From: a phage
Assembly: GCA_012646185.1 (NCBI GenBank)
Contig: GCA_012646185.1_4706.1
Direction: 5' to 3' (one strand)
DNA: 64,000 bases
Of this stretch, positions 11,204 through 62,696 are shown piece after piece. Every line of letters starts with the position of its first letter. The first letter of the stretch is position 1. The position numbers and the translations under genes were made by a program. Under the pieces are notes generated by a model. The model worked only from the letters and a program-made list of their open reading frames with translations. It was not told the origin of the DNA and ran no database searches.

Positions 11204-11235
11204 CCCTCCTCCAACCCGTAAGGGAAGGAGGAGGG
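11204..11235. terminator. bidirectional hairpin terminator between convergent genes
   Basis: CCCTCCTCC-AA-CCC-GTAA-GGG-AA-GGAGGAGGG; preceded on the plus strand by an A10 run (T10 on the minus strand), the classic intrinsic terminator form for the minus-strand gene. Confidence 0.7.
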
Positions 11236-11251
11236 GTTATGACCGCTTTGA

Positions 11252-11578
11252 TTAACTTATTGTCATGAATTCATTAGGTGAAAATTTCCAGCCGTTCTCA
11301 GTGAGAAGCGTGTTGAGTTTCGCTGCAACGATAAGCCATGCATGCATGGCTGTTACATCGTATTGGCGATTCACTCGACGTTGGTTTTCGATATTGATTT
11401 GCTCCTGTTCAGTGATGTTTGGATAAAGTGCGATAGCGCTAGGTTTACCCAGCGCGCTAGTCATCACCGCCGTACATTCACTGATAATGTTGTTTAAGTG
11501 GTAGTTATACACCGTTCCACGCATGACGCGATGACGGCATTCGATAATAGCGTCGTAAATGATTTCTCGAGTAATCAT
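11252..11578 (-). CDS. hypothetical protein (108 aa)
   Basis: ORF tightly following 11585..11986; no obvious SD, so start is uncertain. Confidence 0.55.
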   Translation of the reverse strand: MITREIIYDAIIECRHRVMRGTVYNYHLNNIISECTAVMTSALGKPSAIALYPNITEQEQINIENQRRVNRQYDVTAMHAWLIVAAKLNTLLTENGWKFSPNEFMTIS

Positions 11579-11584
11579 GATAAT

Positions 11585-11986
11585 TTAAAACATACGGTCG
11601 TTTTTAGCACGGGCGTCCATTACCAGATCGTAGATGCCTGCGGTTCGTAAGCACTCTTCGTAGTAACGATGTGTGCCTTCCTCAGCCATCCACGATAACC
11701 CACGGCTATCCGCAACAATAACCAGTTTGTTATTGTTGAACGCACACACCACACGGTAGGTCGCGTTGTTATTCGGATCGCGAGTGATAAGTTCGTAAAC
11801 GCCGTTAACAGGTTTACTGAATTCACCGTTTAACGGAACGAGTTCGGTAGTACCTTCAGCAAACGTTACGTTGATCGGTGATGGGTCTTTAGCGATAACA
11901 GTATATTCCACATTGTGTTCTTTACTGGTCATAATACCGAAGTAAGAACTCACAGGGGAACGTGGTACACTAAGAATATTAAACAT
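11585..11986 (-). CDS. hypothetical protein (133 aa)
   Basis: ORF with AAGAGGA 8 nt upstream of ATG. Confidence 0.65.
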   Translation of the reverse strand: MFNILSVPRSPVSSYFGIMTSKEHNVEYTVIAKDPSPINVTFAEGTTELVPLNGEFSKPVNGVYELITRDPNNNATYRVVCAFNNNKLVIVADSRGLSWMAEEGTHRYYEECLRTAGIYDLVMDARAKNDRMF

Positions 11987-12056
11987 AGATGTTGTCCTCT
12001 TAATTGGATTTAGATTGTTGGGTGTGTTATTGGGAAATGAAAACGTTGTTTCGGTT

Positions 12057-12626
12057 TTAGACGATGAGTGACCAGGTGGTAAGCACCCCGCTTGCGAATT
12101 CGAGCTTAAGACGTTTACCGATAAGTTGTTGTTGGATCATCTTCTCGGTGATACGTCGATCATGCTGAACCGCTTTATCAAACGCTTCTTTCGCTTCAGC
12201 TTGGTAGAAGTTCGTTTCTTCGTTTTCGTCGATCTCTTCGAGAGCATCGTCGTCGATGTCAGCAAGTTTCACTCGACCGTTTTCATCAGGTTGTTCTGCA
12301 GGTTCATTGTCATACGGCGTGTCTTTTGTTGGTGCGACACGATGTTGCAACTCGACCTGCGTTAACATGATCTCCATCTCACCATCGATAGGAATGATTT
12401 CATCGGCGCTGCCGTTTTCGGTCAGCTCTCGACTTTCCAGTAATGTCGTCGTAACAGAGAACACCTCTTCAACAGGAACCTCATCATCGTCGATGGTGTT
12501 AACCGTATTGCTGGTAACTTCGGCAACAACCATCAAATCAAATGCGTGAGGGTCACCTGGCATTTTGATTCCTGGAAGTTTGTTGAGGTACCAAGGATCA
12601 AGAATCATGATTTCTGGATTAAACAT
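12057..12626 (-). CDS. acidic hypothetical protein (189 aa)
   Basis: ORF with AAAGGTAA upstream; D/E-rich composition. Confidence 0.7.
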   Translation of the reverse strand: MFNPEIMILDPWYLNKLPGIKMPGDPHAFDLMVVAEVTSNTVNTIDDDEVPVEEVFSVTTTLLESRELTENGSADEIIPIDGEMEIMLTQVELQHRVAPTKDTPYDNEPAEQPDENGRVKLADIDDDALEEIDENEETNFYQAEAKEAFDKAVQHDRRITEKMIQQQLIGKRLKLEFASGVLTTWSLIV

Positions 12627-12828
12627 CGTATTTTACCTTTCTATGTTAGGTGGATTGCGGATAGAAGAATCAATGCATAGATTGATAGTTCTTTGTTAGA
12701 AATTATTGCCGAACCGGTTATGGTTATAACGCGTGTTTTCGTATTCTGACGGGTCGCGTATTAATAAGGCCATGACTGTATCCTCGATTATTAAGAGAAA
12801 TTTACAACGATAACAGTAACCGCTGTTA

Positions 12829-12888
12829 TCACCTAGGTAATGTAGTCGCGAAATAAACTGGAGTAATGCGAAATAAGACAGCATAGAA
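12829..12888 (-). promoter_or_regulatory. conserved intergenic element, copy A (promoter or 5' leader candidate)
   Basis: Nucleotide-level match to copies B and C; immediately adjacent to hairpin 12889..12920; the ORF-track 12696..13097 crosses it but its frame is not conserved between copies. Confidence 0.45.
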
Positions 12889-12920
12889 CCCTCTCCCAAC
12901 CCATCAGGGAAGGGAGAGGG
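12889..12920. terminator. GC-rich two-tier hairpin 4 nt after stop of 12925..14292
   Basis: CCCTCTCCC-AA-CCC-ATCA-GGG-AA-GGGAGAGGG. Confidence 0.6.
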
Positions 12921-12924
12921 AATA

Positions 12925-14292
12925 TTAAACGGTTGGGCGAACGGTGTTGTCTTTTTCTGGTGCAAGCCATAACGTGACCGTACCATGGCATGTCCACTGT
13001 GGTTCACGTACAGAAGAACCTGCCATCGTAACAGCACAATCGGTACGCATGATAACCCCGTATGCTTCGCAGAGATTGTTATCCTGCATCCACACAACTT
13101 TAGCAGGCATGCCAGGATACAACAAATCCATGTTTGCGTATTCCCACACCAACTGCATTGTTCTGCCGCGTAATCCAGCAGTATTACTTAATTCACGCCA
13201 TCGGTTATCGGTTACGCGCCCCATCCCTTTCGCCACCTTCACGTTATCGCTACGTTCTTCAGTTACGTACTCGCTAACGTTTACGGTACGACTGATTATC
13301 GTATCACCCCCTTTTGATAATGTCATTCCCTGACTCATCTGACTTGCCGAAACAAAACGCCCGCCCGCATTACCTAACAACGAAGCCGCGTTATTGATGT
13401 CGCTTACCGACGCCCCTCTCGTACATGCAATTTCCACGTATTTGTCACGATTGATCCAGGTCTTGTCCATGCCCGGAAACATATCGGCAGGATAGTTGTA
13501 AAAGATAGCCGTACGGCGGCCATCAGAGAAACGGGTTTCGTCATAGAGAGGATAAATATACAGATACGGGGATTGATAATAACAACCGACATCCGCTGAA
13601 TAAATACCGACCTGGTTCTGGATTTTGTCTACGAGATCCATTGCGTTGGTACCGTGTGGAAGAATAAGCAACTTGAACAGGTTGTCGTTATTCGGTGCAA
13701 CAATATCCACACCCTGCATTTTGAACCCGGTATCGGCTTCAACCGCAGAAAGTATCTTGCTGAATTCGAGCCGTAACACATCCAGCACTTTCGACCCGGT
13801 ATAGTTTTCACCGGTTTCTGATTGCATGAAGCTTTCAAGAACAGGATCGAACAGTTGAAATTGAAGATCGACCATTTGTTCGTAGTCTTTCTTCGAAGAA
13901 TCGGTTGCGGTACGTTCGTCGTTAGCAGACATACGACTGTCTACGGTTGTTAAACAAACCGCCCGGTAGACGTAAGCTTGCGCAGCATCGTCTACGGTTT
14001 GGCGTTGTCCGCGCATCAGGCTGTACGCCTGCACGATGATGCGCATTTTAAGTTGTTGTTGGTATGGTAGAATGTATTTTCCGTAACTGCCCGGTGGGAA
14101 CTTTACAGAAATATAAAGTTCATCCCCTGCGTTACGTTCATAGTCTCGATACGTGTGGACTTGAGTCACTAAAGGAACAGACACCGTCATTGACGGCGTG
14201 ATTAATTCCGCGGTGACTTTATACGCAACAGCAACTGCTTCCTGCGCAAATGTACCGATATACCGTCCTAACGGCGTCTGTTTGTAATCCAT
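12925..14292 (-). CDS. hypothetical protein (455 aa), probably structural
   Basis: Last gene of a translationally coupled minus-strand chain (16200..17765, 14897..16213, 14295..14900, 12925..14292). Confidence 0.75.
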   Translation of the reverse strand: MDYKQTPLGRYIGTFAQEAVAVAYKVTAELITPSMTVSVPLVTQVHTYRDYERNAGDELYISVKFPPGSYGKYILPYQQQLKMRIIVQAYSLMRGQRQTVDDAAQAYVYRAVCLTTVDSRMSANDERTATDSSKKDYEQMVDLQFQLFDPVLESFMQSETGENYTGSKVLDVLRLEFSKILSAVEADTGFKMQGVDIVAPNNDNLFKLLILPHGTNAMDLVDKIQNQVGIYSADVGCYYQSPYLYIYPLYDETRFSDGRRTAIFYNYPADMFPGMDKTWINRDKYVEIACTRGASVSDINNAASLLGNAGGRFVSASQMSQGMTLSKGGDTIISRTVNVSEYVTEERSDNVKVAKGMGRVTDNRWRELSNTAGLRGRTMQLVWEYANMDLLYPGMPAKVVWMQDNNLCEAYGVIMRTDCAVTMAGSSVREPQWTCHGTVTLWLAPEKDNTVRPTV

Positions 14293-14294
14293 GT

Positions 14295-14900
14295 TTAACG
14301 ACCCCGTTGCTGTTGTTGAATGATGAATTCTTCGATCTTCGTACCACGGAATTCGCTGTGACGAACCGCTTGCAGTTGCTCTTCAACGGTTGGGCCTGCG
14401 TTGAGACCGCCACGACGTGCGCGGTTGATGCCGATTTTACGACGCTGACCGATTTCACGTAAACGTGAAGATAATCCGCTCATTTCGGTTGGGTCTTTAA
14501 TACGACCGCGTGCAACGTTCCACAGACCACCCATGAACTCTTCGAGGATACGGCTGGCTTCGAGAGACGGTACGCGTGCGTTGGGATCGTTTTCGAGATT
14601 GTATTTAACGTATTCCGTGTGTTCCAGAAGAAGCATGAACATCTTCATGGCGTTCACGTCAGGATTTGCAATACGCATAGGGACACCACGAGAATGTTTT
14701 TCAGCAGCCTGCGGTACAGTGAGCTGTGCGGGCACCTCTTCGTTCATGGCCATATCGTCGATTTCTGCAACCCCTGAAGAGTAGACACCGCTGACTTCGT
14801 TGGTGTAGTTATCCACCATGAATTTACGGGGAATCCAGAATTCGAATTTACGTTCAAATAGACGTTTGGTTGGGGTATCTTTAACGTGTTGTAGACTCAT
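14295..14900 (-). CDS. hypothetical protein (201 aa)
   Basis: ORF; ATGA start/stop overlap with upstream gene. Confidence 0.7.
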   Translation of the reverse strand: MSLQHVKDTPTKRLFERKFEFWIPRKFMVDNYTNEVSGVYSSGVAEIDDMAMNEEVPAQLTVPQAAEKHSRGVPMRIANPDVNAMKMFMLLLEHTEYVKYNLENDPNARVPSLEASRILEEFMGGLWNVARGRIKDPTEMSGLSSRLREIGQRRKIGINRARRGGLNAGPTVEEQLQAVRHSEFRGTKIEEFIIQQQQRGR

Positions 14901-16213
14901 GGTTCAATAGCTCCTGCTCGTAACAGCATAATAACGAACGGTGTGAAATAATAACGATCTAGCGGAGAAAGCAACGGTATTGCGTCAACCATCTGTTTCA
15001 GTGCCGGATGGCTGATCGCTTTCTCATCGACCATATCACGTACCATACTCTCAATAATCGTCATTGGGGCTTGATTGCGGTAGAAAGCCTCTGTGAAAAC
15101 ATAGTACGGATCGTCCGCTACCGATGGAAACAACGGAACGCCGTCATACTCCATCGATGTAAGGTTGGTCACCAACGGATTTGTCGGTGGTGTGTTTTCA
15201 GGTACAGCCAACTCTTTACCTACGTCTTCACCGAGCGACGTGGTCGCAGGCCACATACAGAACCGCGCACCACTAAAACGAATCCCACCTGCAGCCGGGT
15301 ACTGATAGAAACGCTTTGTTGACAACAGTGTGAATTTCACCGTCAACCGTGCTTCGTCTTCCCGACGTCCGTCCATGACCCATTCAAAGACAGAAATCGC
15401 GTTCGCTTCCTGGCTGTCGTCTACGTTAAGGCGTCCGAAGTTCCATGAAGGTTTTCCTTCAAGCGACGACCATAATTTCGTAAACGCGTTAACGCACCAG
15501 GGATCGTAGGTTGCAGCATCTTGACCAGGAACAAGCAATGTGTTTAATTCACGGCTGTAGAATTCATGGTAGTACGCGTGACAAAGTCCCAGTGCACGAC
15601 GGAGATAATCGTACTTACGATTGTATTTCTCCGTTGCCATTACGGGATGTTTTCCGTGCTTTAACTGGTCTTGGTCGTACAGCGTATCCTCAACGATTTT
15701 CGCTTCCAGTTCGATAAGCTGTTTTTCGTCAAGAATACGTTGGAAGGAAATATCACATTCGTAAGCCGGTGCTAAGCTGATGTTCTTCGGCGTGATTCGG
15801 GTGATCGTGTACACCGCGATACGATGATCGAGACCGGAGATTAACAGCATGTTACCTAAAAGAGGAACCGATACCGCCGGAAGTATACACGTACCCTCGG
15901 ATTGAAAACGTGCGGTCCCGTTGTCGTACGACGGCGTCAATGACGACATTAACTTGATAGGGTAATGTCTGATGCGACGGTACTGCTGCTCGGCAATATC
16001 ACGGTTAGCTTGAAAACTGCTTTGTTCATCATCACGACCGAGAATCTGTTCGTAATAATCACATTCTACGGAATAACCGGATGCGTAATTCACTAACCCG
16101 ATTTGACTATTGTATTGCTCATCCACCACTGCAGAACGATAAACATCGTCGCGAGCCTTCGCGGGTTGTTGGGGGTTGATGATGGGTTTCGCGGGCTTCT
16201 TAGCGAGCGCCAT
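14897..16213 (-). CDS. hypothetical protein (438 aa)
   Basis: ORF overlapping the stop of 16200..17765 by 14 nt. Confidence 0.75.
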   Translation of the reverse strand: MALAKKPAKPIINPQQPAKARDDVYRSAVVDEQYNSQIGLVNYASGYSVECDYYEQILGRDDEQSSFQANRDIAEQQYRRIRHYPIKLMSSLTPSYDNGTARFQSEGTCILPAVSVPLLGNMLLISGLDHRIAVYTITRITPKNISLAPAYECDISFQRILDEKQLIELEAKIVEDTLYDQDQLKHGKHPVMATEKYNRKYDYLRRALGLCHAYYHEFYSRELNTLLVPGQDAATYDPWCVNAFTKLWSSLEGKPSWNFGRLNVDDSQEANAISVFEWVMDGRREDEARLTVKFTLLSTKRFYQYPAAGGIRFSGARFCMWPATTSLGEDVGKELAVPENTPPTNPLVTNLTSMEYDGVPLFPSVADDPYYVFTEAFYRNQAPMTIIESMVRDMVDEKAISHPALKQMVDAIPLLSPLDRYYFTPFVIMLLRAGAIEP

Positions 16214-17765
16214 AGCGTTTCACTCCTACGATGGTACCGACAAGAATTCTCGGTACGAATAAACTACGATGTTTGAACCATGAAGCGGTTGTTGGGATAC
16301 GTTTGATGGCTTCGATAAGCCCGATTAGCGTATAGCATCCCCGACTGTTCTTCCTAGGCCAGTACTTTTTATCTAGACCTAATACTGCAAACAGTTCATC
16401 CACCAGATTGGGATAACAACACAACGCTTCAAGTGTTTCAACCTGTAACTGACTTAAATCTAACAGTATCGCTAGACGAACGTGGTAATCACTCCGTAAG
16501 TCTAACGGATCTTTCGCTTCAAGATCACCAACGTCGGTTAATGTCCACGCGTCTCTTGCGTAGCGGTATTTGCCCTTCCAAACCTCAAGGAAAAAAGGAG
16601 ATTGGTAGTGGCATTTTGACCATTCTGGGTACTCACGGAACCACCGAACAAGATCGGGATGGAATTCACCTTCTTCGGCTAACGAGTCCAACGTCACCAA
16701 TAGGTTAGGTTGTTCAGGATCGATGGCAAGCAGCGCGGTGAAAAGCGTGCTTGATGGAAGTTCGGTTTCCACGCTCGATGGCGGTAGCCATTCATCCAAA
16801 TCAGGATACCGATACGCTTGAATCGATGCGCCCTGTTCAGGCAAGAACGAATCACGAAGAATGTCCTGATACTGCACCACCATACCACCACGACGCGCAC
16901 GGGATTTATCACGCACCGAAAGGCTCGGTTTGTAAAGGTACTCTTCGGGGAGTATCTGTTGGTGTACTTGAACCGGATACCGTGCTACGATGTGTGTTGG
17001 CGTGTCGTACGTGTAACGGTAAGAGAAGGTTGCGTTGTACGAAGAACTGTTCTCATTCTTCTCGGGTTTCGGAGCGTCGGTGAAATCAAATTGACCAGAG
17101 ATCTCTTCTTGCATTTCCCTGATAACCAATTTAACGCTCTTACCGTCACCGGCAACTGTCGTCATGGTGGTTGCACGGTTGTCGAACCCATCCCTAAGGT
17201 ATTCGCTGAACTTATCCCCGTAACCCGCTATTGCTTCTCGGTGTGTATGAATAACTTTTAACAACATGAGAAACTGTGTTGGGATCGCATAGCTGTATTC
17301 GGCGCTAAGAAAGGCGGCAACATGCTGACTTGTGAGCAACCGTTTCATGTCGTACCACCAACGTTCGGCAGTGACCTGATCTTCGAACCGTTTGGTGATC
17401 TGCATGGTTGCAACCATCGTACTGTAAACAGGTACCAGCGATACACCAAGGTTACGGTCTTCAAATACGGGAAGACTGTTTCGTTTGTAAACAGTATCGT
17501 ACATAGAGGCCTGTTCTTCAGGGACAATGTTAAGCTCAATTTGGATAAACCCGTCAGCAGGCCCCTTTACATCCTGATCAACAACTTGCGGCGGTTGCTC
17601 GTTCGCAGCACTCATTTTAGCGTGAAGCGCTTCCCCTCGAAAAAGAATGTTCTCCCGACTATAATCCCACCCGCAAAGCTCGCTGATCTGCCGTAACACC
17701 GCGATTGCAACCGGACGTGTTACCGTCGCGTATACGTCATTGATTTTTCGATCAAGTTTAGGCAT
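16200..17765 (-). CDS. hypothetical protein (about 521 aa)
   Basis: Start moved to ATG 17763-17765 (MPKLDRK), which overlaps the upstream stop by 8 nt; ORF-track start 17792 lies inside the upstream gene. Confidence 0.7.
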   Translation of the reverse strand: MPKLDRKINDVYATVTRPVAIAVLRQISELCGWDYSRENILFRGEALHAKMSAANEQPPQVVDQDVKGPADGFIQIELNIVPEEQASMYDTVYKRNSLPVFEDRNLGVSLVPVYSTMVATMQITKRFEDQVTAERWWYDMKRLLTSQHVAAFLSAEYSYAIPTQFLMLLKVIHTHREAIAGYGDKFSEYLRDGFDNRATTMTTVAGDGKSVKLVIREMQEEISGQFDFTDAPKPEKNENSSSYNATFSYRYTYDTPTHIVARYPVQVHQQILPEEYLYKPSLSVRDKSRARRGGMVVQYQDILRDSFLPEQGASIQAYRYPDLDEWLPPSSVETELPSSTLFTALLAIDPEQPNLLVTLDSLAEEGEFHPDLVRWFREYPEWSKCHYQSPFFLEVWKGKYRYARDAWTLTDVGDLEAKDPLDLRSDYHVRLAILLDLSQLQVETLEALCCYPNLVDELFAVLGLDKKYWPRKNSRGCYTLIGLIEAIKRIPTTASWFKHRSLFVPRILVGTIVGVKRYGAR

Positions 17766-18141
17766 CGATGTCGTCCTCGCTAATTTCCTCACCTCCTTGT
17801 TGTCGATATCCGGTATAATGAATCAGACTGCTCTGTAGAAGCTCTTTAACGAGCCCTAGACGCGTTTTATCTGTTTCATTGGACGTTTCCATTAATGTTT
17901 CTATTTCGTTGTTTAAAACAGCGTATAGCGCTTCTAACGGCAATCCTTGGATGATTGGTTTGATGGTACCTTCCGGTAGTGCCGCAACAGGAATCTGCAC
18001 GACGGTTTCATGTGAGGTATGTGGGTTAATACGGCAAATATACATACCGGGTACTGAATGTCGCGGGCACGCCGCTACCAAGCATGTCTGTTGCTGCGCA
18101 CCGTTAAGTGCGAGTGAGAGAAATTTTGCTTCACGTGTCAT
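17758..18141 (-). CDS. hypothetical protein (127 aa)
   Basis: ORF directly after hairpin 18194..18213. Confidence 0.6.
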   Translation of the reverse strand: MTREAKFLSLALNGAQQQTCLVAACPRHSVPGMYICRINPHTSHETVVQIPVAALPEGTIKPIIQGLPLEALYAVLNNEIETLMETSNETDKTRLGLVKELLQSSLIHYTGYRQQGGEEISEDDIDA

Positions 18142-18193
18142 CGCAGATTCCTGTTTGAAAGATAAGATATCACATGATGGTCGACAGCATAAA

Positions 18194-18213
18194 GCCCACC
18201 CCGAAGGGCGGGC
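18194..18213. terminator. hairpin after 18230..21616
   Basis: GCCCACCC...GGGCGGGC stem with one mismatch; followed on the minus strand by TTTATGCTGT as at other hairpins. Confidence 0.5.
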
Positions 18214-18229
18214 TGTTTATGCGTACGGA

Positions 18230-21200
18230 TTACTTGTAGGCACCGCAATGGGCTTTGATGAGGAAAAGCACCGCTTGCATCGGTTTATTGAACTGTTGCC
18301 ATAACGTCAATGCCGGATGGAACAACCAATCTTCCAGACCAAGAACGATACCGTAGTTAACGACATTATTAACATCGTTCTCAACGTTGAGTTCGCTATC
18401 CAGGAATTTATCGATTGAACGCAGGGTCTGCATGGCGTTGTCAGCAATAAGCCAAGCTTCATGTGCTTCACGAGCCGCACGCAGCACTGCCTCCAGTTCG
18501 CTGATAGTAGCTACCGGTAATTCCTCACTGGTGAGGTCGTCAGAAACCGTAAACTGGCGATTGATACCGGTGTAGATCCACTGCATCAGTTTCGCTGCTT
18601 CCTCGTTCGGGTTGTTACGCGTTGTCGCATAAGTCGCGCTCACCTTCACGATATGCGTTTCACCAAGATACGCTTTGGAACCAACACCTTTACGATCGCT
18701 GTCTTTCCACGGTTGTACGGTAGCGACCATGAGCTTATCCCATTTCTGAATAGGAATACGCTTCAGACCAACAACCGATCCAGCGGATGTTTCGGACTGG
18801 TTGCTCTTCCGCACGTCGCTGAGCTCACGATCGATAGCAACGATTAATTCACGCGTCATGTTACCAAGCATTTTGATTTCACCCAACGCAGCGATGAGCT
18901 TCTTCACGTCAGTAACAGGTTCACCACCGATGGTAAGATGACGGATGAAACGTTTCAGAATAATCCGTTCTGCTGCTGGGTTACCACGACGCGCTTTAGC
19001 CAACGCTTGCTGTGTTTCGGCGAACAGCTTATCCCATGGAGCCGTAGCGGCGGTATAGTAACGATGGTTGGTTTCGATCCAGTTACCGATACGGTTGACC
19101 GCGCTCTTAACGGTATCCATGAATCCTTCCATCGCAATTTCGGTAGCTTCGACGTTACCCTGGAAGTTATCAGGACCGATTTCGCGTGCCGCTACCAGAA
19201 TACCTTCCACCGCACTCACCGCATGACGACCGATAGCCAGATTTCGCTGTGCTTCTTCAGCACGCTCAACGAATTCCACTACCGCAGGATCGTCAACGAT
19301 TTCCGCCTCGGCAACAGCACGCGTACCCGCATCACCTTCCAGCGTTTCGATAGTGACAACCGGATCGTTTTCACCGGCAACATCCTGATACTCTTCCTGT
19401 TTGAGATCGCCGTTATCAGCCGCTGCGACAGCGGTGAGTATACGGACGGTAACATCACCGAGTTCTTTTGCAGCGAATCCGTAAACGGTGCATGCTGTTT
19501 TTGCAAAGTTCATTAGAATGCGTGTACGTTTAACGATGTAACCAACGCCGTAGTCACTACCGCTATTATCGATGTCACGGATTAACTGCTCAGCCGTTTC
19601 TTGAAGGATAGATACTGACTTCAAGAGATCGTCTTCAAACAGTTTCTTCGACACCTCAACCAACATATCAGCATTGATGTTGGGTGGGGTTTTGTCGCCC
19701 TGTTGTTTCATCTCGCTTAATTCATCGCGGAACTTACTGATTCCATCCAAAGCGGCACTGGCGGTATGTCCGAACGCGGCAACTCCTGGCATTGTTGTTG
19801 CTGACAACATATCCGAATCGGCGTTTGGACTTTCGCCTTCTTTAAGATCCTTCAGCTGGTCGAAGAACTTGCGAGATGCTTCAGCGATACGTTTGCTGTC
19901 TTTCACCGCGTTTACGATTTTATCGACGGATTTAGCGTCGTTTGCAAGCAGCGTATCGAGTTTGTTCCATTCGACACCGACTTTCGTCGCATCCTTAGTA
20001 TCGCTTGGCGGAGGAAGCAGTTTTGTCACCGGAGTCGTGCGTTGTTCTTTGGTCAGCTTGTTGGCCTTCTCTTCGATTTTTTTCTTGTTAACACCAAAGA
20101 GATTTTTCAAACGCGCCACGAGGGCTTTTAAGAACTTCGCGACCGCTTCGTAAACCGATTTCAGAATCTGTTTAAAGCGACCCGGCTGCTTTTCCCCGTC
20201 TTCCAGATTGAGATCGCTGTTCAGTGCGACATCAAGCTGTTTGTACGATTCCATGATGTATTCGTCTTTGATTTCAGGACGAATCTCGAAGCTTTCCATC
20301 GGACCTTCAGCCGGACGGAATTCCATTTTCAGTTCGCCTTGCAGGGTAGGGTCGACAATAGCGATAGCTTCACCCTGACCATCAGCGTTAAAGCGTTCAG
20401 CGTAACGAGTACGGCGAACAATAACGCTCTTATCCCCATCAAGACGACGCACCACCATGGTGCCAGGAATGTACGGTTGTTCTGTTTCAATGACGGTTAC
20501 ATCTGTTTCACCCTCACCGAGAATAACAGATGCACGCTGTTCGACAACAGGAACATCTAATACACCACGGGCTTCCAGCTCTTGATGGATTTCGAACGAC
20601 TCTTGTTTCAGATCTTCATCTTCTTCGTTTTCGTCGTCTTCATCATCGTCACCTTTGGTGTTTTCATCATCCTTGGTGGTTGTGTCGTCGGTGGCACCAG
20701 CGTCAGCGTCGGTGTTAGCAGGTTCTTCGGACGCAGGTTCGGTGGTGTTGTCCTCCGTGGACGACCCGTCAGTGTTATCGACATCAACATCACCTTGCAG
20801 TTCTGTTTCCTGAGCAACTGCTTCGGCTTTCTGCTCGCCGGTATTACCATCATTAGCGTCGACAACAGGTTGTTCGTCAGCGACGGTATCTTCAACCTTT
20901 TCTACTTTCTCCACGACACGTTTAATCACGGTGACTTTGATGGGTTCTTCCGTTGTTTTGGTTTCTGACGTCACCTCGGCTGCCGCAGCCGCTGTTTCAG
21001 CAACAGGTTCTGCTTTTTCCGGTTCGACGACATTACCTTTAACACCTTCGGTGGTTTCTGCAGGTTGCGCTGCCTGTTCGATTTGCGCCGGATTGGTTGG
21101 ATCGATGGCGTTAGCCGCATCCTGAATCTTGTTCTTCAGGTTGTCGCGGTCAGCGTTAACGGTCGGGTCGTTGGTCACTTTCGGTGCCGGTGTTTCGGTC

Positions 21201-21616
21201 GGTGCGTTTGCCGGATACGGGTTCTTCGGCTCTTCGCCAGGTGCGGTCGGTACCGCGATCAGAACGAACGGTTGAACATCGTTACCGTCTTCCATGGTTA
21301 CGCCACCGTTGCTCGGTGTGAAACGAATTCGTAAACTACCATCAATAGGACGGGTCACAATAACAGCACGTACGACATCCTCACCGTTCTCATCCGTGCT
21401 ACGAATCACACGAACAGCGTCATCAACGGTAGCCCCTTCCTCGAGCGTATCTGATTCGATCGTCGCTTCGATGCTGTCTGGCCGTGCCGCTGTAGGTAAT
21501 GCGATCACTTGCTCTTCTTTATCAGTAGAAAGCGTTGCTTTGACTTCGATAGGTGTATCGCCGCTTTCCAGGTTAAGATGCGACTTACGCATCAGATCAG
21601 CTAACGATTTTTTCAT
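18230..21616 (-). CDS. large acidic virion-type protein (1128 aa)
   Basis: N-terminal about 330 aa are D/E/T-rich low complexity; contains ESFE-type motifs (LKQESFEIHQ, GPMESFEIRPEIKDEYIMESYKQL) shared with the downstream paralog array. Confidence 0.8.
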   Translation of the reverse strand: MKKSLADLMRKSHLNLESGDTPIEVKATLSTDKEEQVIALPTAARPDSIEATIESDTLEEGATVDDAVRVIRSTDENGEDVVRAVIVTRPIDGSLRIRFTPSNGGVTMEDGNDVQPFVLIAVPTAPGEEPKNPYPANAPTETPAPKVTNDPTVNADRDNLKNKIQDAANAIDPTNPAQIEQAAQPAETTEGVKGNVVEPEKAEPVAETAAAAAEVTSETKTTEEPIKVTVIKRVVEKVEKVEDTVADEQPVVDANDGNTGEQKAEAVAQETELQGDVDVDNTDGSSTEDNTTEPASEEPANTDADAGATDDTTTKDDENTKGDDDEDDENEEDEDLKQESFEIHQELEARGVLDVPVVEQRASVILGEGETDVTVIETEQPYIPGTMVVRRLDGDKSVIVRRTRYAERFNADGQGEAIAIVDPTLQGELKMEFRPAEGPMESFEIRPEIKDEYIMESYKQLDVALNSDLNLEDGEKQPGRFKQILKSVYEAVAKFLKALVARLKNLFGVNKKKIEEKANKLTKEQRTTPVTKLLPPPSDTKDATKVGVEWNKLDTLLANDAKSVDKIVNAVKDSKRIAEASRKFFDQLKDLKEGESPNADSDMLSATTMPGVAAFGHTASAALDGISKFRDELSEMKQQGDKTPPNINADMLVEVSKKLFEDDLLKSVSILQETAEQLIRDIDNSGSDYGVGYIVKRTRILMNFAKTACTVYGFAAKELGDVTVRILTAVAAADNGDLKQEEYQDVAGENDPVVTIETLEGDAGTRAVAEAEIVDDPAVVEFVERAEEAQRNLAIGRHAVSAVEGILVAAREIGPDNFQGNVEATEIAMEGFMDTVKSAVNRIGNWIETNHRYYTAATAPWDKLFAETQQALAKARRGNPAAERIILKRFIRHLTIGGEPVTDVKKLIAALGEIKMLGNMTRELIVAIDRELSDVRKSNQSETSAGSVVGLKRIPIQKWDKLMVATVQPWKDSDRKGVGSKAYLGETHIVKVSATYATTRNNPNEEAAKLMQWIYTGINRQFTVSDDLTSEELPVATISELEAVLRAAREAHEAWLIADNAMQTLRSIDKFLDSELNVENDVNNVVNYGIVLGLEDWLFHPALTLWQQFNKPMQAVLFLIKAHCGAYK

Positions 21617-21631
21617 AAAGCGTTATTCCTC

Positions 21632-24023: not shown

Positions 24024-24130
24024 TTGGGACTCCTACGTAGGAAAATCTTGGCGGGTGATCATGTCCGCCATTTACCTTCTGAACCGTTGATTCAGAAGTC
24101 AAAAGATAACCGGATACCAACGTCATAAAA

Positions 24131-24162
24131 CCTTCCTCCAACCCAACAGGGAAGGAGGAAGG
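24131..24162. terminator. GC-rich two-tier hairpin
   Basis: CCTTCCTCC-AA-CCC-AACA-GGG-AA-GGAGGAAGG between 22722..24023 and 24173..25462. Confidence 0.6.
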
Positions 24163-24172
24163 GATATAGTGG

Positions 24173-26836: not shown

Positions 26837-26868
26837 CCCTCTCCCAACCCGTTAGGGAAGGGAGAGGG
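26837..26868. terminator. GC-rich two-tier hairpin
   Basis: CCCTCTCCC-AA-CCC-GTTA-GGG-AA-GGGAGAGGG between 25472..26788 and 26891..28213. Confidence 0.6.
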
Positions 26869-35111: not shown

Positions 35112-35143
35112 CCCTCCTCCAACCCGTCAGGGAAGGAGGAGGG
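35112..35143. terminator. bidirectional hairpin between convergent genes
   Basis: CCCTCCTCC-AA-CCC-GTCA-GGG-AA-GGAGGAGGG. Confidence 0.65.
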
Positions 35144-47091: not shown

Positions 47092-47141
47092 TTCAAGTAG
47101 GTTGATCCTCGTTTAACAAAAAAGAAAACACATGCGAAGCT

Positions 47142-47169
47142 CCTCCCCCTGGCGGAAGCCGGAGGGAGG
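47142..47169. terminator. hairpin with GGAA tetraloop
   Basis: CCTCCCCCTGGC-GGAA-GCCGGAGGGAGG, 11 of 12 pairs; downstream of 47178..47663. Confidence 0.6.
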
Positions 47170-47177
47170 GGTGAGGT

Positions 47178-48254: not shown

Positions 48255-48290
48255 AGCCCTTCCCCGGCCTTGGTGGCTAGGGAAGGGGCT
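48255..48290. terminator. GC-rich hairpin
   Basis: AGCCCTTCCCC...GGGAAGGGGCT. Confidence 0.5.
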
Positions 48291-48301: not shown

Positions 48302-48700
48302 TTATGCTTCGCAATCAGCTGAAGGCGTCGCGCCTTTCTTACCGGCGATACGCCAAATCCGACACGCTGGGTAATGGTTAACCTCTAGAGAGCAAGGAAT
48401 GTTATATTTCTCTTCCAGCGCATAAAGACATTTCGTTAGCTGCTCCAGCGCGTTCTCGTCGTGTCGTAACGCGTGGTGGCCTAATCGATGTTGGTCGTTC
48501 TTTATATACGCCTCGAAGAGAACATGTTGGCGATGTACGCTGACGTTTACAGCCTCGAGTATAGCTTGGTCGAGCATACGACTAAAGCACATCAACGAGT
48601 CAGATACGTTTTCTCGCTTAACCAGATCGATCATGGCGGGAATATACGAATGGTCGATGTTATCGATGACCGCTTTAGCGACGGAATCAGCAACGTTCAT
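48302..48700 (-). CDS. small hypothetical protein (132 aa), tandem paralog of 48736..49131
   Basis: Shared blocks VKAV.DNIDH...MID..K.E, EKYNIP.SLEVN..PA with its neighbour. Confidence 0.7.
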   Translation of the reverse strand: MNVADSVAKAVIDNIDHSYIPAMIDLVKRENVSDSLMCFSRMLDQAILEAVNVSVHRQHVLFEAYIKNDQHRLGHHALRHDENALEQLTKCLYALEEKYNIPCSLEVNHYPACRIWRIAGKKGATPSADCEA

Positions 48701-48735: not shown

Positions 48736-49131
48736 TTACTCTTTGACGTCAGTTGTCGTTTCGACATGCTTCTCACTACTGACGTACCAGAGCAGGTACG
48801 CTGGGAAAAGATTGACCTCTAAGCTAAATGGGATATTGTATTTCTCTTCCATTTTACAGAGATGTTCTTTAAGTAAATTTCTCGCGTCTCTGTCACCACG
48901 AACAGAGTGCCAGTCTAGTTCTTTGTTCTCCTTTACCAGGACCTCTACGATGATACGTTGCTCGTGAACCTCGGTTTTCACAGTGAAAAGTAAATCGCTG
49001 CTATCAAAACGGGTAAAACGAATGTATGAACCAGGTGTTTTTTCTTGTTTAATAATATCGATCATGGTAGAAATGCGCGGATGATCGATGTTGTCGTTAA
49101 CAGCTTTAACGATGGATTCTACAATGCTCAT
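48736..49131 (-). CDS. small hypothetical protein (131 aa), tandem paralog of 48302..48700
   Basis: See paralog; ATGA overlap with the upstream micro-ORF. Confidence 0.7.
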   Translation of the reverse strand: MSIVESIVKAVNDNIDHPRISTMIDIIKQEKTPGSYIRFTRFDSSDLLFTVKTEVHEQRIIVEVLVKENKELDWHSVRGDRDARNLLKEHLCKMEEKYNIPFSLEVNLFPAYLLWYVSSEKHVETTTDVKE

Positions 49132-50923: not shown

Positions 50924-50991
50924 TTAATGATGAAAAGCTGTAAAAAAAGGTGGGGCGAACCCCACCAAAACGTCAGACACACGCAGGAAAA

Positions 50992-51484: not shown

Positions 51485-51545
51485 TCACTAAGGTAATGTA
51501 GTCGTGAAATAAACTGCGTTAACACGAAATAAAAACAGCATAGAA
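51485..51545 (-). promoter_or_regulatory. conserved intergenic element, copy C (promoter or 5' leader candidate)
   Basis: TCACTAAGGTAATGTAGTCGTGAAATAAACTG...ACAGCATAGAA; a 1-nt indel relative to copy A breaks any shared reading frame. Confidence 0.45.
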
Positions 51546-51585
51546 CCCTCCTCCCACATCCTTCAAGAGGACGGTGGGAAGAGGG
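51546..51585. terminator. long GC-rich hairpin
   Basis: CCCTCCTCCCAC...GTGGGAAGAGGG, 11 of 12 pairs, plus an inner stem. Confidence 0.55.
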
Positions 51586-52046: not shown

Positions 52047-52076
52047 CCCTTCCCTGCCCTTATATGGGGCGGGAAG
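52047..52076. terminator. hairpin
   Basis: CCTTCCC...GGGAAG with inner GCCC/GGGC. Confidence 0.45.
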
Positions 52077-52206
52077 AGTTTATGACCGCAATGAGAATCT
52101 CTCACGACAAGCTCACGACGATTATCGCATCACCCCGCGAGTGAGGGAGATCAGGATCACCTCCTACGTCGTAACGACAGTAATCCCGTTAACGTCGCTT
52201 TAGACG

Positions 52207-58226: not shown

Positions 58227-58258
58227 CCCTCCTCCAACCCGTAAGGGAAGGAGGAGGG
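58227..58258. terminator. bidirectional hairpin between convergent gene blocks
   Basis: CCCTCCTCC-AA-CCC-GTAA-GGG-AA-GGAGGAGGG, identical to the 11204 copy. Confidence 0.65.
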
Positions 58259-59229: not shown

Positions 59230-59250
59230 CTAGACACCACCTCCAACGTG

Positions 59251-61863
59251 TTAAGCGTCCGGCGTAAAATCAAAAGGAATGTCCGTACGAATGATATCGT
59301 AACGTTTTCCGAGGAAATAAAACTCTTCGGGAACCTGGCCTGGAATGATGCTATCACCGATGAACTGCGGATACGCCCAGATGTACTGAGTGAGTCCTTC
59401 GAACATATCCAGGTTATTTGCGTGGTTACCCATGATACGTTTCCAGAGTTCGCGTTTATACGGTGTTTTAACATCGAATCCATAAAGCGGTGCAAGATCT
59501 TCACCAGGAACAAATCCCAGGTAATAATGGATCTGACTAACCGGGAAACCAAGCGTATCTCGCGGAATGGTGATCGCTTGCTCAGCCTTGGTGACATGCG
59601 TCTCAATAATCCAGTCGTAGCACTCCGAATAGAACCGATCGAATTTCTCTGGATTATACCACGCTTTGGGAAGATTGAGTTTCTCCGTGAACGCATTCGA
59701 CATGATCGTCGGTAAGAACGGAAGAATACCGGTTTTGATCTGCGTGTATTTCGATTTTACCCGGTTAACCAAATTCCAGCAACTGTATCCTAACTGTTCG
59801 TTACAAAACTCAACGTAGAGATCGTAATCACCGCCAGATAATGGGTTGTTAATATCACCGATGTCTGCGGCGTATTTGTTGGGATATCGGTTATTGAAAG
59901 CCAGTTTGGTTTGGTAATCGTAGATACACGGTTTGTTGTTCGCTGTATTGATCCACCACCAGGGTTCACCTACTTGCACACAAATGTCCTGGACATGAGG
60001 GTAGATGATATCAGCAAACGCGGTTAACACATCCCCTAACCATGCCATCGCCTGTTGGTTACATGGAGACAACAACCAAGACGGTGGCGTATATCCGGTT
60101 GCTGCGATGTTTCCTTCCCAATCCTGCTGCGCCCACTCGAACGGACATGCTGTACTCATCAATTCGTAACTTAAACTGATGGTGACAGAGAAATGGTGTT
60201 TTGCGGCGTATGCAGCGAAAGCTTCATGCCACGCGATACAGGGTGGATTTAATACATCTGTGGTGTTCACCAGTAACTTACCCGCACTTGGCGTCCAGAC
60301 AGTATCGTAGAAATGCGACATTCCAACATAATGCACTAATTCATCTTGATACCCCGCATAAACCAGGTTCTCAAATACGCGCTCCGGCGTGATGTTGTAA
60401 TGGTCATCATAAGCGGTTATCGCACGAAGTTCGTGTGGCGTACAATGATGGCGATTAACCGTCATTTCCTGATACACCCCATCGATAGGAAGAATCTCGA
60501 TGGTTAAACCGAGGTCGATCGGTGTTTCCAGATAGGTCGTTTCAGTCGCATCTTCCTTATAATGTCGAGAACTCATGCTGAACATCAACGACGTTACCGA
60601 TTCGAGTTCGATAGGCTCGTCAGCATAGAACCCCGCCATTGCGTCATTGAAATCGATCGTTACGATTGCGCTTGTACCGTCTTCAGAGACGTCGGTCGCA
60701 TATCGGGTTAATGAGATATACTGACGGCTATCGTCTTTGTGTACGATGGTTAAAACCGGCGGGTTTTCGGTATCTGCAAAGTTACGCTGATCGCCAGTAA
60801 ACGTGATCTTCGCTTTAAAGATCAAACCGAATAACGACGTCATGGGATCATACGCAATACAACCGTGATCCAGCGTATCCGTTGTCCGCCATTCTATCCC
60901 GACCAACCCGTTAGCGGTATGGCATCGCATATACGCATTAAGTACCATGTCCTCACTGACAACCGCGAAGTTCTCTGTTGACTGACCGTTGATAATCCAA
61001 TACATCGGTTGCCAGAGGTTACGCGTACCTTTTGCGTAGCGGTAGGTTGGTGCGCCTTTGGGGTTGCCATTATTAAGATGGAATACGGCAGTACCTTGAT
61101 AATGGTCGTTCGTATTAATCGGGACACTGTAAGCATCACCGAGATCCGTACGTTCCACCTTCGCGACTGTTGCGTTTTCAAATAACCCACGCAGCGCGGG
61201 TAAACCGATATCTTCAGGTGCGTTTTCTCGACGAATCGCATCCGCGATGCGGTGGGCTAAGGCGGGGTAAATGGTCTCACCCTGTTGTAGGTTTGCAATA
61301 CCTACAAAGCGATCGGGAGCGATGTCAGCAATCAATAACTCAACATCACCCTTCGTTCTATCGTCATTAAGATATTTCAGTCCGGTAAGGTCAAGATGCT
61401 GAATAAGCGACAACAGGTTGTATTTACGGTTTTCAACAGTTAGTACAAGATCGCCTGCCCAAACCAAACTTCCCTCATCCGCTGTTACTTTAACGGATTG
61501 TCGGCCTGTGGTAGACGTTGTTGTCGTTTTATTTAATTGTCCTTGTAGGAAGTCGGTTGCGAGGTCAAAGGCGATACCGTAACGGTCAGCGACCGCTTGC
61601 ACGATTTCACGTAACTGGGTATCTTCTTCAATGATAATCTTGACAGGTATTCCCAAGAACGCTTTAGCGAGGTCTCGTTTAACCAACGAGACGAATACGG
61701 ATTTGTAGTATCGACTTCCATCTTTCCCTTTAAAAAGAATGGAAGTTGTTTCGGGTGCCGATAGAACACGTGCAAATACGACATCGTCGGAAGTAAGAGA
61801 AAGTCCGTTTTTCTCGTTGACCAATCTTAGTATTTCATTTTGCGCGGTTTCATGTAACTTCAT
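59251..61863 (-). CDS. large tail-module protein (870 aa); function unknown
   Basis: Long ORF with GAGG upstream; Trp-rich C-terminal half (GEPWWWINT); a tail role is inferred only from its position upstream of the fibre/Tfa genes. Confidence 0.75.
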   Translation of the reverse strand: MKLHETAQNEILRLVNEKNGLSLTSDDVVFARVLSAPETTSILFKGKDGSRYYKSVFVSLVKRDLAKAFLGIPVKIIIEEDTQLREIVQAVADRYGIAFDLATDFLQGQLNKTTTTSTTGRQSVKVTADEGSLVWAGDLVLTVENRKYNLLSLIQHLDLTGLKYLNDDRTKGDVELLIADIAPDRFVGIANLQQGETIYPALAHRIADAIRRENAPEDIGLPALRGLFENATVAKVERTDLGDAYSVPINTNDHYQGTAVFHLNNGNPKGAPTYRYAKGTRNLWQPMYWIINGQSTENFAVVSEDMVLNAYMRCHTANGLVGIEWRTTDTLDHGCIAYDPMTSLFGLIFKAKITFTGDQRNFADTENPPVLTIVHKDDSRQYISLTRYATDVSEDGTSAIVTIDFNDAMAGFYADEPIELESVTSLMFSMSSRHYKEDATETTYLETPIDLGLTIEILPIDGVYQEMTVNRHHCTPHELRAITAYDDHYNITPERVFENLVYAGYQDELVHYVGMSHFYDTVWTPSAGKLLVNTTDVLNPPCIAWHEAFAAYAAKHHFSVTISLSYELMSTACPFEWAQQDWEGNIAATGYTPPSWLLSPCNQQAMAWLGDVLTAFADIIYPHVQDICVQVGEPWWWINTANNKPCIYDYQTKLAFNNRYPNKYAADIGDINNPLSGGDYDLYVEFCNEQLGYSCWNLVNRVKSKYTQIKTGILPFLPTIMSNAFTEKLNLPKAWYNPEKFDRFYSECYDWIIETHVTKAEQAITIPRDTLGFPVSQIHYYLGFVPGEDLAPLYGFDVKTPYKRELWKRIMGNHANNLDMFEGLTQYIWAYPQFIGDSIIPGQVPEEFYFLGKRYDIIRTDIPFDFTPDA

Positions 61864-61885
61864 TAAAAACCTCAGCCCTTTAGAA

Positions 61886-62527
61886 TTAAATGTACTGCTT
61901 ACCGCCCACGAAGGAAGTTAACCAGTTCCTGCTGACGAGTTGTGATACCCAGCCTGGAACGGCTCTACCATTCTGGCTCATGATGTTACCACACCAACCA
62001 GGGAATCCGGGACGGATGTAATAGAAAGTTAAATTGTAGAGATGACAGTTCCATACCGCAACGTTATGTTTACCAGAAACCGCTTTAAAGACAAACGCGA
62101 CAGGTAACGGAGACGATAACAATTCAGTCACAGGGACGGCTGACCAGTTCGCATTCGCGTTCCATGGCTGCCAGGTGTGACTACGCGAGTCACCGTTAAC
62201 GTTACCGTTGCTACCGCGTCCGCCCGCGTTCCACCATAGCGACGGACTCATGTTCTTAAGTGAGGTAAATTGCTGTGGTGGAATATTCGGAATGATAACA
62301 GGGTTGGTACCTTGTCCGTGTTTCTTTTCTTTTGCGTTCACATAGCCGTTTATCGATTCGAGGTATTTGGTACCAGGATAATTGTTCTGGACTCGTGTCG
62401 CAATATCACGAACGTCGAACGTCCAGCAGATCATGGTGTTGTAGTAAGCGTCGGTGTTATCATGCCATGAGTTACCATCTTGTAAACGTGCGCCGCTATT
62501 CGGTGTTTTATCTGTACTTATAGCCAT
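61886..62527 (-). CDS. hypothetical protein (213 aa)
   Basis: ORF with AGGA upstream; Asn/Gly/Trp-rich. Confidence 0.65.
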   Translation of the reverse strand: MAISTDKTPNSGARLQDGNSWHDNTDAYYNTMICWTFDVRDIATRVQNNYPGTKYLESINGYVNAKEKKHGQGTNPVIIPNIPPQQFTSLKNMSPSLWWNAGGRGSNGNVNGDSRSHTWQPWNANANWSAVPVTELLSSPLPVAFVFKAVSGKHNVAVWNCHLYNLTFYYIRPGFPGWCGNIMSQNGRAVPGWVSQLVSRNWLTSFVGGKQYI

Positions 62528-62666
62528 GGTCTTGTCCTATACGTTGGTGGTTGAGGTGGCGGATATCGGATGCGTGCTGGACGTGAACCCTATAGTTCGC
62601 GCTATCGCCATTTTCTACCTCGTTTCTATTCTCAAAAAGGAAATTTCATACGATGACGCCATAGCA

Positions 62667-62696
62667 GCTCCTCCTTCCCTGACGGGTTGGAGGAGC
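62667..62696. terminator. hairpin of the conserved family in inverted orientation
   Basis: GCTCCTCC-TT-CCC-TGAC-GGG-TT-GGAGGAGC. Confidence 0.6.

Follow-up and report, generated by a model that had tools for sequence, protein, structure and literature searches.

The window analysed here is a 64,000-nucleotide stretch of phage DNA (contig GCA_012646185.1_4706.1 of GenBank assembly GCA_012646185.1). Its bases 10000-30000 are 96.3% identical, end to end over 20 kb, to Escherichia phage vB_EcoM_Goslar (MK327938, 237,307 bp), a nucleus-forming jumbo phage of the Chimalliviridae. Gene models were made by mapping Goslar proteins onto the window, and the whole annotated Goslar genome was used for comparison. 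The genes lie mostly on the minus strand and 6.9% of the window is intergenic. They include g39, which encodes a homologue of GP123, the beta-like subunit of the phiKZ non-virion RNA polymerase (nvRNAP). The two proteins share 24% identity over 578 residues (E = 1e-53), and g39 has 235 relatives in chimalliviruses. The product of g78 is annotated as RNA polymerase (RNAP) beta-like. The Goslar identity, g39 and g78 mark the source as a chimallivirus with its own multisubunit RNAP. We focused on a family of palindromic hairpins found between the genes. These are probably transcription terminators.

We searched the window with a strict 32-nt pattern, CCCTCCTCCAACCCNNNNGGGAAGGAGGAGGG, allowing up to 3 mismatches. 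This produced 4 matches, compared with 0 in 100 shuffles. A structure-aware scan, in which CCC-N3-6-GGG had to lie between complementary 9-mers, identified seven full copies, starting at 11204, 12889, 24131, 26837, 35112, 58227 and 62667, and a looser one at 6406. A half copy occupies positions 1..16. Each full copy spans 32 nt and is built in two tiers. The outer tier is a 9-bp stem with polypyrimidine and polypurine arms. A 2x2 AA/AA internal loop separates this from CCC-N4-GGG, a 3-bp stem with a tetraloop. On RNA folding, 7/7 copies took this structure with free energies of -24.5 to -30.3 kcal/mol (z = -4.6 to -6.6), and 0/200 shuffles were equally stable. Hence, the recurring family pointed out in a preliminary description of this DNA is real, and each full copy folds as drawn. 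There were no matches to Rfam 15 in the window at the gathering score, and a tRNA scan found nothing.

The copies had been called near-identical. Instead, there are several compensatory arm types (CCCTCCTCC, CCCTCTCCC, CCTTCCTCC and GCTCCTCC), and the interior of the 62667 copy is inverted, reading TT..TGAC..TT on the plus strand. In an alignment of 17 distinct copies from the window and Goslar, 5 of 12 pairs were changed on both sides, 99% of cells were paired and no change was one-sided. Slid controls of the same alignment fell to 52-68% paired. Hence, conservation applies to the structure rather than to the arm sequence itself. As DNA, the two-tier copies form perfect palindromes, with no G·U pairs. 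All seven are intergenic and lie 3-30 nt after stop codons; within the window, none is inside a gene or at a divergent junction. The position at gene ends is thus as first described. Convergent junctions, which had been said to be frequent, account for just three of the seven (11204, 35112 and 58227) and the half copy. The other four (12889, 24131, 26837 and 62667) lie between co-directional minus-strand genes.

Table 1. Hairpins at gene ends in the window, and the gene for the GP123 homologue.
Feature	Position	Strand	Context
Half copy, 3' half (GGGGAGAAGG + gcTATG)	1..16		Cut by window edge; orthologue of Goslar 36847-36880, at convergent junction Goslar_00036(+)/00037(-)
Two-tier hairpin	11204..11235		Convergent junction g43(+, ends 11177)/g44(-, ends 11252); plus-strand TATG at 11238-11241
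Two-tier hairpin	12889..12920	-	4 nt past g48(-) stop; sense tail ttcTATGCTGT (TATG = 12882-12885, minus strand)
Two-tier hairpin	24131..24162	-	10 nt past g56(-) stop; sense tail tttTATGACGT; plus strand without proximal TATG
Two-tier hairpin	26837..26868	-	22 nt past g58(-) stop; sense tail ttcTATGCCGC; CATA/TATG form a third, lower tier
Two-tier hairpin	35112..35143		Convergent junction g63(+, ends 35090)/g64(-, ends 35153); tails aaTATGCTGT (+) and tTATGCTCA (-)
Two-tier hairpin	58227..58258		Convergent junction g83(+, ends 58210)/g84(-, ends 58276); TATG tails on both strands
Two-tier hairpin, inverted interior (AA/GUCA on minus-strand RNA)	62667..62698	-	About 6 nt past g88(-) stop; sense tail TATGGCGT; plus strand without tail
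Broader-class hairpin	6405..6436	-	After g41 (major head protein homologue); 3 G·U pairs solely on minus (sense) strand; tail ttcTATGCCGT
Simple phiKZ-like terminator (putative)	18193..18214	-	After g53(-); AGCCCGCCC-TTCG-GGGTGGGCT + tTATGCTGT
Broader-class hairpin	47134..47177		Convergent junction DNA polymerase exon 2 (+, ends 47091)/g70(-, ends 47178); TATG tail on plus strand
Broader-class hairpin	48257..48287	-	After extra gene 48302..48700(-); sense tail degenerate (TATAC)
Broader-class hairpin	51546..51585	-	After g76(-); sense tail ttcTATGCTGT
Broader-class hairpin	52047..52078	-	Downstream of g77(-); sense tail cttTATGCCGT
g39	2925..4721	-	Homologue of phiKZ nvRNAP beta-like subunit GP123; mechanism context, outside the repeat family

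Gene-end hairpins with other stems share the same short tail sequence. These were found by folding all intergenic spacers of the window. For each TATG, on both strands, we then scored the best single hairpin ending 0-4 nt upstream. At folding energies of -18 kcal/mol or below, 17/18 hairpin+TATG strand-sites in the window were intergenic (6.9% of the DNA; binomial P = 3e-19). In the Goslar genome, at -20 kcal/mol or below, the count was 40/44 (~7% of the DNA; P = 7e-42), and 2 of the 4 exceptions sit in a doubtful 75-codon open reading frame (ORF). Hence, the combination is excluded from coding DNA. The Goslar strand-sites cluster into 39 loci and the two-tier copies are a subfamily of these. 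At 43 Goslar sense sites the gap between stem and TATG was 0-4 nt, mostly 1-2 nt. Beyond the imposed TATG, the tail continued with C (63%), Y (88%), G (65%) and T (53%). Stop codon and hairpin were a median of 15 nt apart.

In the window, 12/14 strand-sites have the tail on the transcribed strand. One exception is the minus side of the 11204 element, where GCGGT/ACCGC forms a lower stem and a T11 run lies at a distance of 12 nt. The other is the minus side of 48257. The nearest Goslar counterpart of this site lies at 84363, past Goslar_00072, where the sequence is locally rearranged, and its sense strand carries TATG. The sites at 6406, 47142, 48255, 51546 and 52047 had been listed as degenerate relatives of the two-tier family. 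They are gene-end hairpins but not two-tier members; a covariance model, R1, built from Goslar-clade two-tier copies only, returned E-values of 0.03, no hit, 0.05, 0.43 and no hit, respectively. That list lacked a further site of the broader class, at 18193. The R1 E-values of the seven full copies are not independent, because the model was trained on them. The useful output of R1 is its set of cross-hits in phiKZ.

We compared strands at Goslar loci where a gene ends on one strand only. This one-way set comprised 24 loci, after locus 83245 had been moved to the two-way group. TATG was present on the sense strand at 24/24 loci and on the antisense strand at 3/24 (Fisher P = 2e-10). The stems contained 28 G·U pairs in the sense direction and 5 in the antisense direction. 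Since a G·U pair is a mismatch on the opposite strand and in DNA, this indicates selection on the sense RNA. The data point to a signal that is directional and read at the RNA level. Elements between convergent genes are perfect Watson-Crick palindromes, most of them flanked by CATA to the left and TATG to the right. These junctions favour the long two-tier form, which was found at 10/14 convergent and 8/25 one-way loci in Goslar (P = 0.02). Conservation at convergent sites appears strict because the fold is needed on both transcripts, so that wobble pairs cannot be used. What stays constant is TATG on the transcribed strand; at two-way sites, CATA mostly mirrors it. Hence, the CATA...TATG flanks reported earlier exist, but not as a mere palindromic flank.

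Copies were compared across four Goslar-like genomes: the window, Goslar, UViG_3300011560 and UViG_3300045988. Orthologous sites have retained their stems, between flanks of 90-99% identity. Most of these sites differ in the tetraloop (GTAA, GTCA, GTTA, GTGA, ATCA, AACA or AGCA) and the same variants recur at unrelated sites. Between 58227 and its Goslar orthologue the whole arm type and loop differ (CCCTCCTCC/GTAA and CCCTCTCCC/AGCA, respectively). The interior, AA-CCC-GTAA-GGG-AA, is inverted between unmoved flanks in the 11204 orthologue of UViG_3300045988 (L022) and in the orthologue of Goslar 134585 in UViG_3300011560 (L019). Judged from the sequences, these swaps and flips look like exchange between copies and palindrome-mediated inversion. 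Despite the flips, 13/15 canonical Goslar copies have AA..GTAA..AA on the plus strand whatever the gene direction (P = 0.007). We rejected the common GTAA loop, a GNRA tetraloop, as a functional feature; orthologous loops vary freely and the inverted interior gives UUAC on the same transcript.

Exchange of arms and loops, interior flips between near-identical genomes, a 13:2 strand bias and two-tier copies that are perfect DNA palindromes free of G·U pairs would all suit mobile or REP-like palindromes, cruciforms, or protein sites for replication, recombination or packaging. We regard such a DNA-level role as very improbable. In the broader class, one-way stems carry G·U pairs that turn into mismatches in DNA and on the opposite strand. 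The tail tracks gene direction rather than genome strand, and the copies have no associated transposase or nuclease. Furthermore, none of 185,579 bacterial and archaeal genomes (596 Gb) has the motif as a repeat. These contained 24 scattered single hits, compared with ~17 expected by chance, and none was in Escherichia. Among 2.9 million viral contigs (IMG/VR), only Goslar and two Goslar-like UViGs have the motif in multiple copies; the window is the fourth such genome. REP/BIME-type bacterial palindromes and the CUUCGG hairpins of phage T4 are also multi-copy, intergenic, gene-end hairpins and can stabilise 3' ends. However, REPs reside on host chromosomes and are linked to RAYT transposases, whereas the window motif is not a repeat in bacterial genomes. 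The T4 hairpins are defined by their loop, which is the most variable part of the window family. We rejected a host-derived or REP-like origin, given that the bacterial and archaeal hits are close to the chance number. A hairpin in three further contigs (L008, L023 and L028; IMG/VR 3300019124_000021, 3300018757_000033 and 3300018877_000054) was judged a chance resemblance. These contigs are related to each other and are not Goslar-like. They share one orthologous hairpin, GGCCTCC-AA-CCC-N4-GGG-AA-GGAGGCC, directly after the stop codon of a single gene. Its TTTTTATGCTGC tail is on the opposite strand and the context looks Firmicute-like (an amidase with a copper-amine-oxidase-like domain).

The closest known counterparts of the hairpins are jumbo phage terminators. 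In phiKZ, ONT-cappable-seq mapped 133 termination regions and 61 terminators with a conserved motif, 5'-BCCYCCCCHWWDGGGRRGGBYTTATKYYGT-3' (Putzeys et al. 2024, PMC10914365). Six of the phiKZ terminators are bidirectional and lie between convergent genes (PMC10914365). phiKZ and the window phage both belong to the Chimalliviridae. Their hairpins share a polypyrimidine 5' arm and a polypurine 3' arm, a place just past stop codons, a TTATG-YY-GT tail 1-3 nt beyond the stem and the CATAA...TTATG palindromic form at convergent genes. Thus, the seven copies and their relatives have arms of the CCYCC and GGRGG types, in a longer two-tier variant, together with the TTAT-K-YY-GT tail, the gene-end location and the two-way form between convergent genes. 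In the parts of the phiKZ genome that we examined, one copy reads CATAAT-GCCCTCCC-GCAAT-GGGAGGGC-TTATGCTGT, with flanks, arm polarity and tail as in the window. Model R1 matched at least 10 phiKZ loci (E 1e-4 to 0.1) and all were at gene ends. The two forms differ in the stem. That of phiKZ has a single tier of 7-8 bp and a 4-5 nt loop. In the window subfamily, 9 bp are followed by a 2x2 AA (or UU) internal loop, then 3 bp capped by a tetraloop; this amounts to ~12 bp and is roughly 8 kcal/mol more stable.

Similar elements are known from other phages. Motif A of 201phi2-1 (n = 59) was reported as 'strongly resembling' the phiKZ motif, and 15/132 terminators of that phage are bidirectional (PMC11512511). 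It is a sequence-conserved hairpin terminator shared with phiKZ, a likeness that we take from the authors' statement and not from the motif sequences. Combination of motifs A and B lengthens the 201phi2-1 hairpin, which is comparable to the two-tier form of the window. The CATAA-hairpin-TATGCYGT design is also present in Ralstonia phage FLC4-11C and Erwinia phage MadMel, whose RNAP beta-like proteins are <30% identical to those of the window. In Goslar itself, the orthologue of 58227 is annotated as a 'putative terminator' (93445..93476). We conclude that the hairpins are probably the transcription terminators of Goslar-like chimalliviruses, a local version of the terminator module that is conserved among nucleus-forming jumbo phages, with a probability of roughly 0.8. 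On sequence evidence, a role as terminators at gene ends, working both ways at convergent junctions, is supported. The module has already been mapped in phiKZ and 201phi2-1. Hence, the hairpins in the window are real but largely expected. New here are the two-tier palindromic variant with its preference for convergent junctions, the evidence from strand asymmetry, and the observation that the tail is the polymerase's own TATG initiator.

The hairpins had been described as probable bidirectional intrinsic terminators. Classical intrinsic terminators likewise have a GC-rich hairpin near the RNA 3' end, followed by an A/U-rich stretch, and no factor need be assumed. The window family has GC-rich hairpins of at least 5 pairs. 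However, no tail has five or more T residues within 8 nt starting 0-2 nt past the stem; tails read gTTATGAC, TTCTATGC, AATATGCT and similar. Instead of a U-tract there is only UUAU or AUAU within a sequence-specific TATGCYGT tail. A consensus terminator scan of window positions 5001-25000 reported none of the family's copies. Hence, release would not follow the textbook route. We kept the term terminator, two-way at convergent junctions, and dropped the strict label 'intrinsic'. A textbook intrinsic terminator does occur after g75, at 50949-50966(-), with sequence GGTGGGGTTCGCCCCACC+T7 (GGTGGGG-TTCG-CCCCACC then T7). Thus, a second, classical type coexists with the TATG type. Between 5001 and 25000, classical terminator-like sites were not enriched (15, compared with 21 +/- 5 in shuffles). 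Sigma-70-type promoter-like sites in the same interval were half as frequent as in shuffles (13 and 26.2 +/- 5.3, respectively). Both counts fit a phage that makes no use of the host polymerase.

The missing U-tract and the negative consensus scan weigh against assignment of the hairpins as terminators, and so do other observations. A literature search found no transcript-end data for Goslar-like phages; for Goslar and the window phage, termination therefore rests on analogy. The 3' ends mapped in phiKZ could in principle stem from processing, or from exonuclease arrest at the hairpin. The minus side of 11204 has a distant T-run in place of TATG, and the sense strand of 48257 reads TATAC. Terminator function leaves the orientation bias of the interior (AA on the plus strand in 13/15 Goslar copies, P = 0.007) unaccounted for. 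Finally, the G·U asymmetry is partly built into the choice of loci, as the fold was scored upstream of TATG.

Processing deserves separate consideration. If the hairpins were stability or processing elements, read-through RNA would be trimmed back by 3' exonucleases or cut by an endonuclease. Stems as stable as -24 to -30 kcal/mol would block exonucleases, the U-tract is absent, and the sequencing done for phiKZ and 201phi2-1 detects 3' ends rather than the act of termination. Against this, eight 201phi2-1 terminators cloned between two reporters strongly stopped transcription in the uninfected Pseudomonas host (PMC11512511). In addition, a conserved and precisely spaced tail would be needless if it were trimmed away, and read-through at convergent junctions would yield long antisense RNA. 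We therefore consider a stability or processing role unlikely.

The preliminary description had taken strict sequence conservation and the GGAGG arms, which resemble a Shine-Dalgarno (SD) sequence, as signs of an extra processing or protein-binding role. This is not supported. The arms covary, and those of FLC4-11C and MadMel are neither polypyrimidine/polypurine nor SD-like (for example, AGAGGAGAGGC...GCCTCTCCTCT). SD-like arms are thus a habit of the lineage. Strict conservation is seen in the TATG(C)(Y)GT tail, which is universal. A study of ChmC by enhanced crosslinking and immunoprecipitation reported no motif; it was made in PhiPA3 and is uninformative for Goslar-like hairpins.

The GGAGG and CCUCC arms could nonetheless act as SD and anti-SD sequences. 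They would then sequester the ribosome-binding site of the tail ATG or of the next gene, or bind the 30S subunit or 16S rRNA. Indeed, the 3' arm and tail read GGAGGAGGG-N2-3-ATG, a perfect ribosome-binding site, and the annotated start of Goslar_00047 is such a tail ATG. The arms of one Goslar copy equal the 16S 3' end and the SD consensus (ACCTCCTTA/TAAGGAGGT). However, ORFs that begin at the tail ATG have only 5-9 codons at 11204 and 58227. The longer g47, of 62 codons, is unlikely to be a gene and includes a promoter-like motif. Real downstream genes begin 43-260 nt away, so the arm cannot be their SD. We rejected an SD function for the next gene, as the distances are too long and the arms of relatives are not SD-like. 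Together with arm covariation, this makes any SD or anti-SD role hard to credit.

The cited literature on jumbo phage terminators and polymerases proposes no mechanism of termination. The module consists of a GC-rich RNA hairpin, 0-4 nt, and U-A-U-G-(C)-(Y)-G-U, a few nt after the stop codon. We infer that the nascent hairpin forms while the polymerase is on an A/U-rich stretch ending in UAU. The end of the stem would be only 4-6 nt behind the 3' end at ...UAU. This would leave a weak hybrid of 4-6 bp, and the transcript would be released. At convergent pairs a single element would have to stop polymerases from both sides, which would account for its perfect Watson-Crick palindrome, with CATA at the left end and TATG at the right.

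The identity of the tail suggests a further step. Late promoters of phiKZ consist of 5'-TATG-3', with the G as start site, and each substitution abolishes transcription (Yakunina et al. 2015, PMC4666361). In a 2026 structure, the beta-like subunit, GP123, holds the four non-template bases splayed in a pocket (PMC12809450). The window has the same non-template tetranucleotide and encodes a homologue of the TATG-binding subunit. In phiKZ promoters TATG serves as start site without a preceding hairpin, whereas in the window it follows a hairpin at gene ends. We tentatively suggest that TATG after a hairpin is a polymerase-specific termination signal and not a substitute for a short U-tract; we think it doubtful rather than likely. 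The pocket of the nvRNAP beta-like subunit that clamps TATG at late promoters would capture it again during elongation. The enzyme would pause with RNA ending ...UAU, 4-6 nt past the stem, and the hairpin would strip the short A/U hybrid. One pocket in the core enzyme would then read 'start here' with no hairpin behind and 'stop here' with a hairpin behind.

Further observations bear on this idea. Of the 16 GP123 pocket residues, 8 are identical in g39 and 2 more remain aromatic, compared with 27% identity overall; this is weak evidence from a pairwise alignment. Across all 247 Goslar coding sequences TATG occurs at 0.65x the frequency in codon-order shuffles (z = -15) and CATA at 0.64x (z = -10). 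By the same measure, TATC (1.33x) and GATA (1.17x) are enriched. TATG is thus avoided on both gene strands, as a polymerase signal would be. The promoter role of TATG, the pocket structure, the GP123 homologue and the avoidance of TATG together make capture, pause and release plausible. If true, capture of TATG would explain why stems drift but chimalliviruses of Pseudomonas, Ralstonia, Erwinia and E. coli all keep the tail. It would also explain counter-selection of TATG on both gene strands and the CATA-hairpin-TATG palindromes at convergent junctions. Against a strictly polymerase-specific mechanism, terminators of 201phi2-1 work with the host polymerase (PMC11512511). The module is also found in regions of small genes that may be transcribed by the virion polymerase. 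The papers on phiKZ late promoters (PMC4666361; PMC12809450, IUCrJ 2026) describe no role for TATG in pausing or termination.

Alternatively, the tail may itself be a late promoter. The elements would then be terminator-promoter cassettes, and antisense RNA would start at convergent junctions. We consider this improbable, and slightly more so than capture of TATG during elongation. In its favour, phiKZ late promoters are defined by TATG, with G at +1, and any point mutation kills transcription (PMC4666361). At co-directional sites the next gene begins 43-140 nt past TATG (for example g57, g52 and g76), and the 0.65-fold frequency of TATG on both strands of Goslar genes is as expected of a start signal. 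However, convergent junctions keep TATG tails on both sides with no gene to start, and the phiKZ model promoter P119L has no hairpin upstream of its TATG. Moreover, three co-directional sites already have a separate motif, resembling an early promoter, before the next gene. The converse idea, that the hairpin is the missing specificity determinant of late promoters, was rejected as a general rule because the region upstream of P119L is AT-rich and hairpin-free.

The promoter-like motif, TTT(C/A)ACG(R)C-TA(C/T)ATTAC(C/T)TAGGTGA, is found at 6347-6362(-), 12829-12844(-) and 51485-51500(-), 40-60 nt downstream of three of the predicted terminators. Goslar has 12 copies with at most 3 mismatches, all on the minus strand and 24-204 nt upstream of gene starts. 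Of these, 11/12 are intergenic and 1/12 is within the doubtful ORF Goslar_00047. We take the core of the motif, TATATTAC, to resemble the early promoter of phiKZ, used by the virion RNAP.

Several neighbouring genes differ from those of Goslar or are unusual. The DNA polymerase gene is apparently split. Exon 1 is g68 (43635-45134, +) and a short exon 2 frame ends at 47091 (+). The stretch 45135-47091 contains an HNH/NUMOD endonuclease ORF (45228-46364, +), after exon 1, and a group I intron match at 46326-46817 (Rfam RF00028, 42.5 bits, E = 6e-9, slightly below the gathering score of 50). With exon 2 ending at 47091 on the plus strand, the hairpin at 47134-47177 would be a convergent-junction terminator. 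Regions that vary relative to Goslar are 35153-38758 (-), 45228-46364 (+) and 48302-49131 (-). In the first, the g64 homologue has 1201 aa in the window and 930 aa in Goslar, and its N-terminal half is just 48% identical. The intron endonuclease in the second is 68% identical to its Goslar counterpart. In the third, small genes at 48302-48700 and 48736-49131 have no Goslar counterpart. Genes g55, g56 and g57 (22722-26788, -) are distant paralogues of one another, with 22-30% identity in tblastn cross-hits. The hairpin at 24131 lies between g56 and g55, and that at 26837 lies after g58, directly upstream of g57. The gap between g57 and g56 is 9 nt and has no hairpin.

Recognition of the module has consequences for annotation. 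Goslar-like genomes have ~39 sites, only a minority of which carry the annotation 'putative terminator'. Gene callers also mistake the SD-like arm and the ATG for the start of small ORFs that are spurious, such as Goslar_00047. The orthologue of this ORF in the window (12696-12884, -; 62 codons) starts at the ATG of a terminator tail, with the 3' arm of the hairpin as 'SD', and contains the promoter-like motif. It is probably a terminator-promoter-leader region and not a gene. Goslar_00145 (134413..134640) spans a hairpin and is similarly doubtful. The two-tier palindromes, at ~45 bp, are compact candidate bidirectional insulators for engineering. In Goslar, a main E. coli model for the phage nucleus, recognising the module fixes operon boundaries. 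Across hosts, chimallivirus terminators keep the TATG(C)YGT tail and not the stem sequence, and the tail coincides with the late-promoter initiator. This coincidence offers a concrete and inexpensive way to test in vitro how multisubunit polymerases that are sigma-less and highly diverged may terminate.

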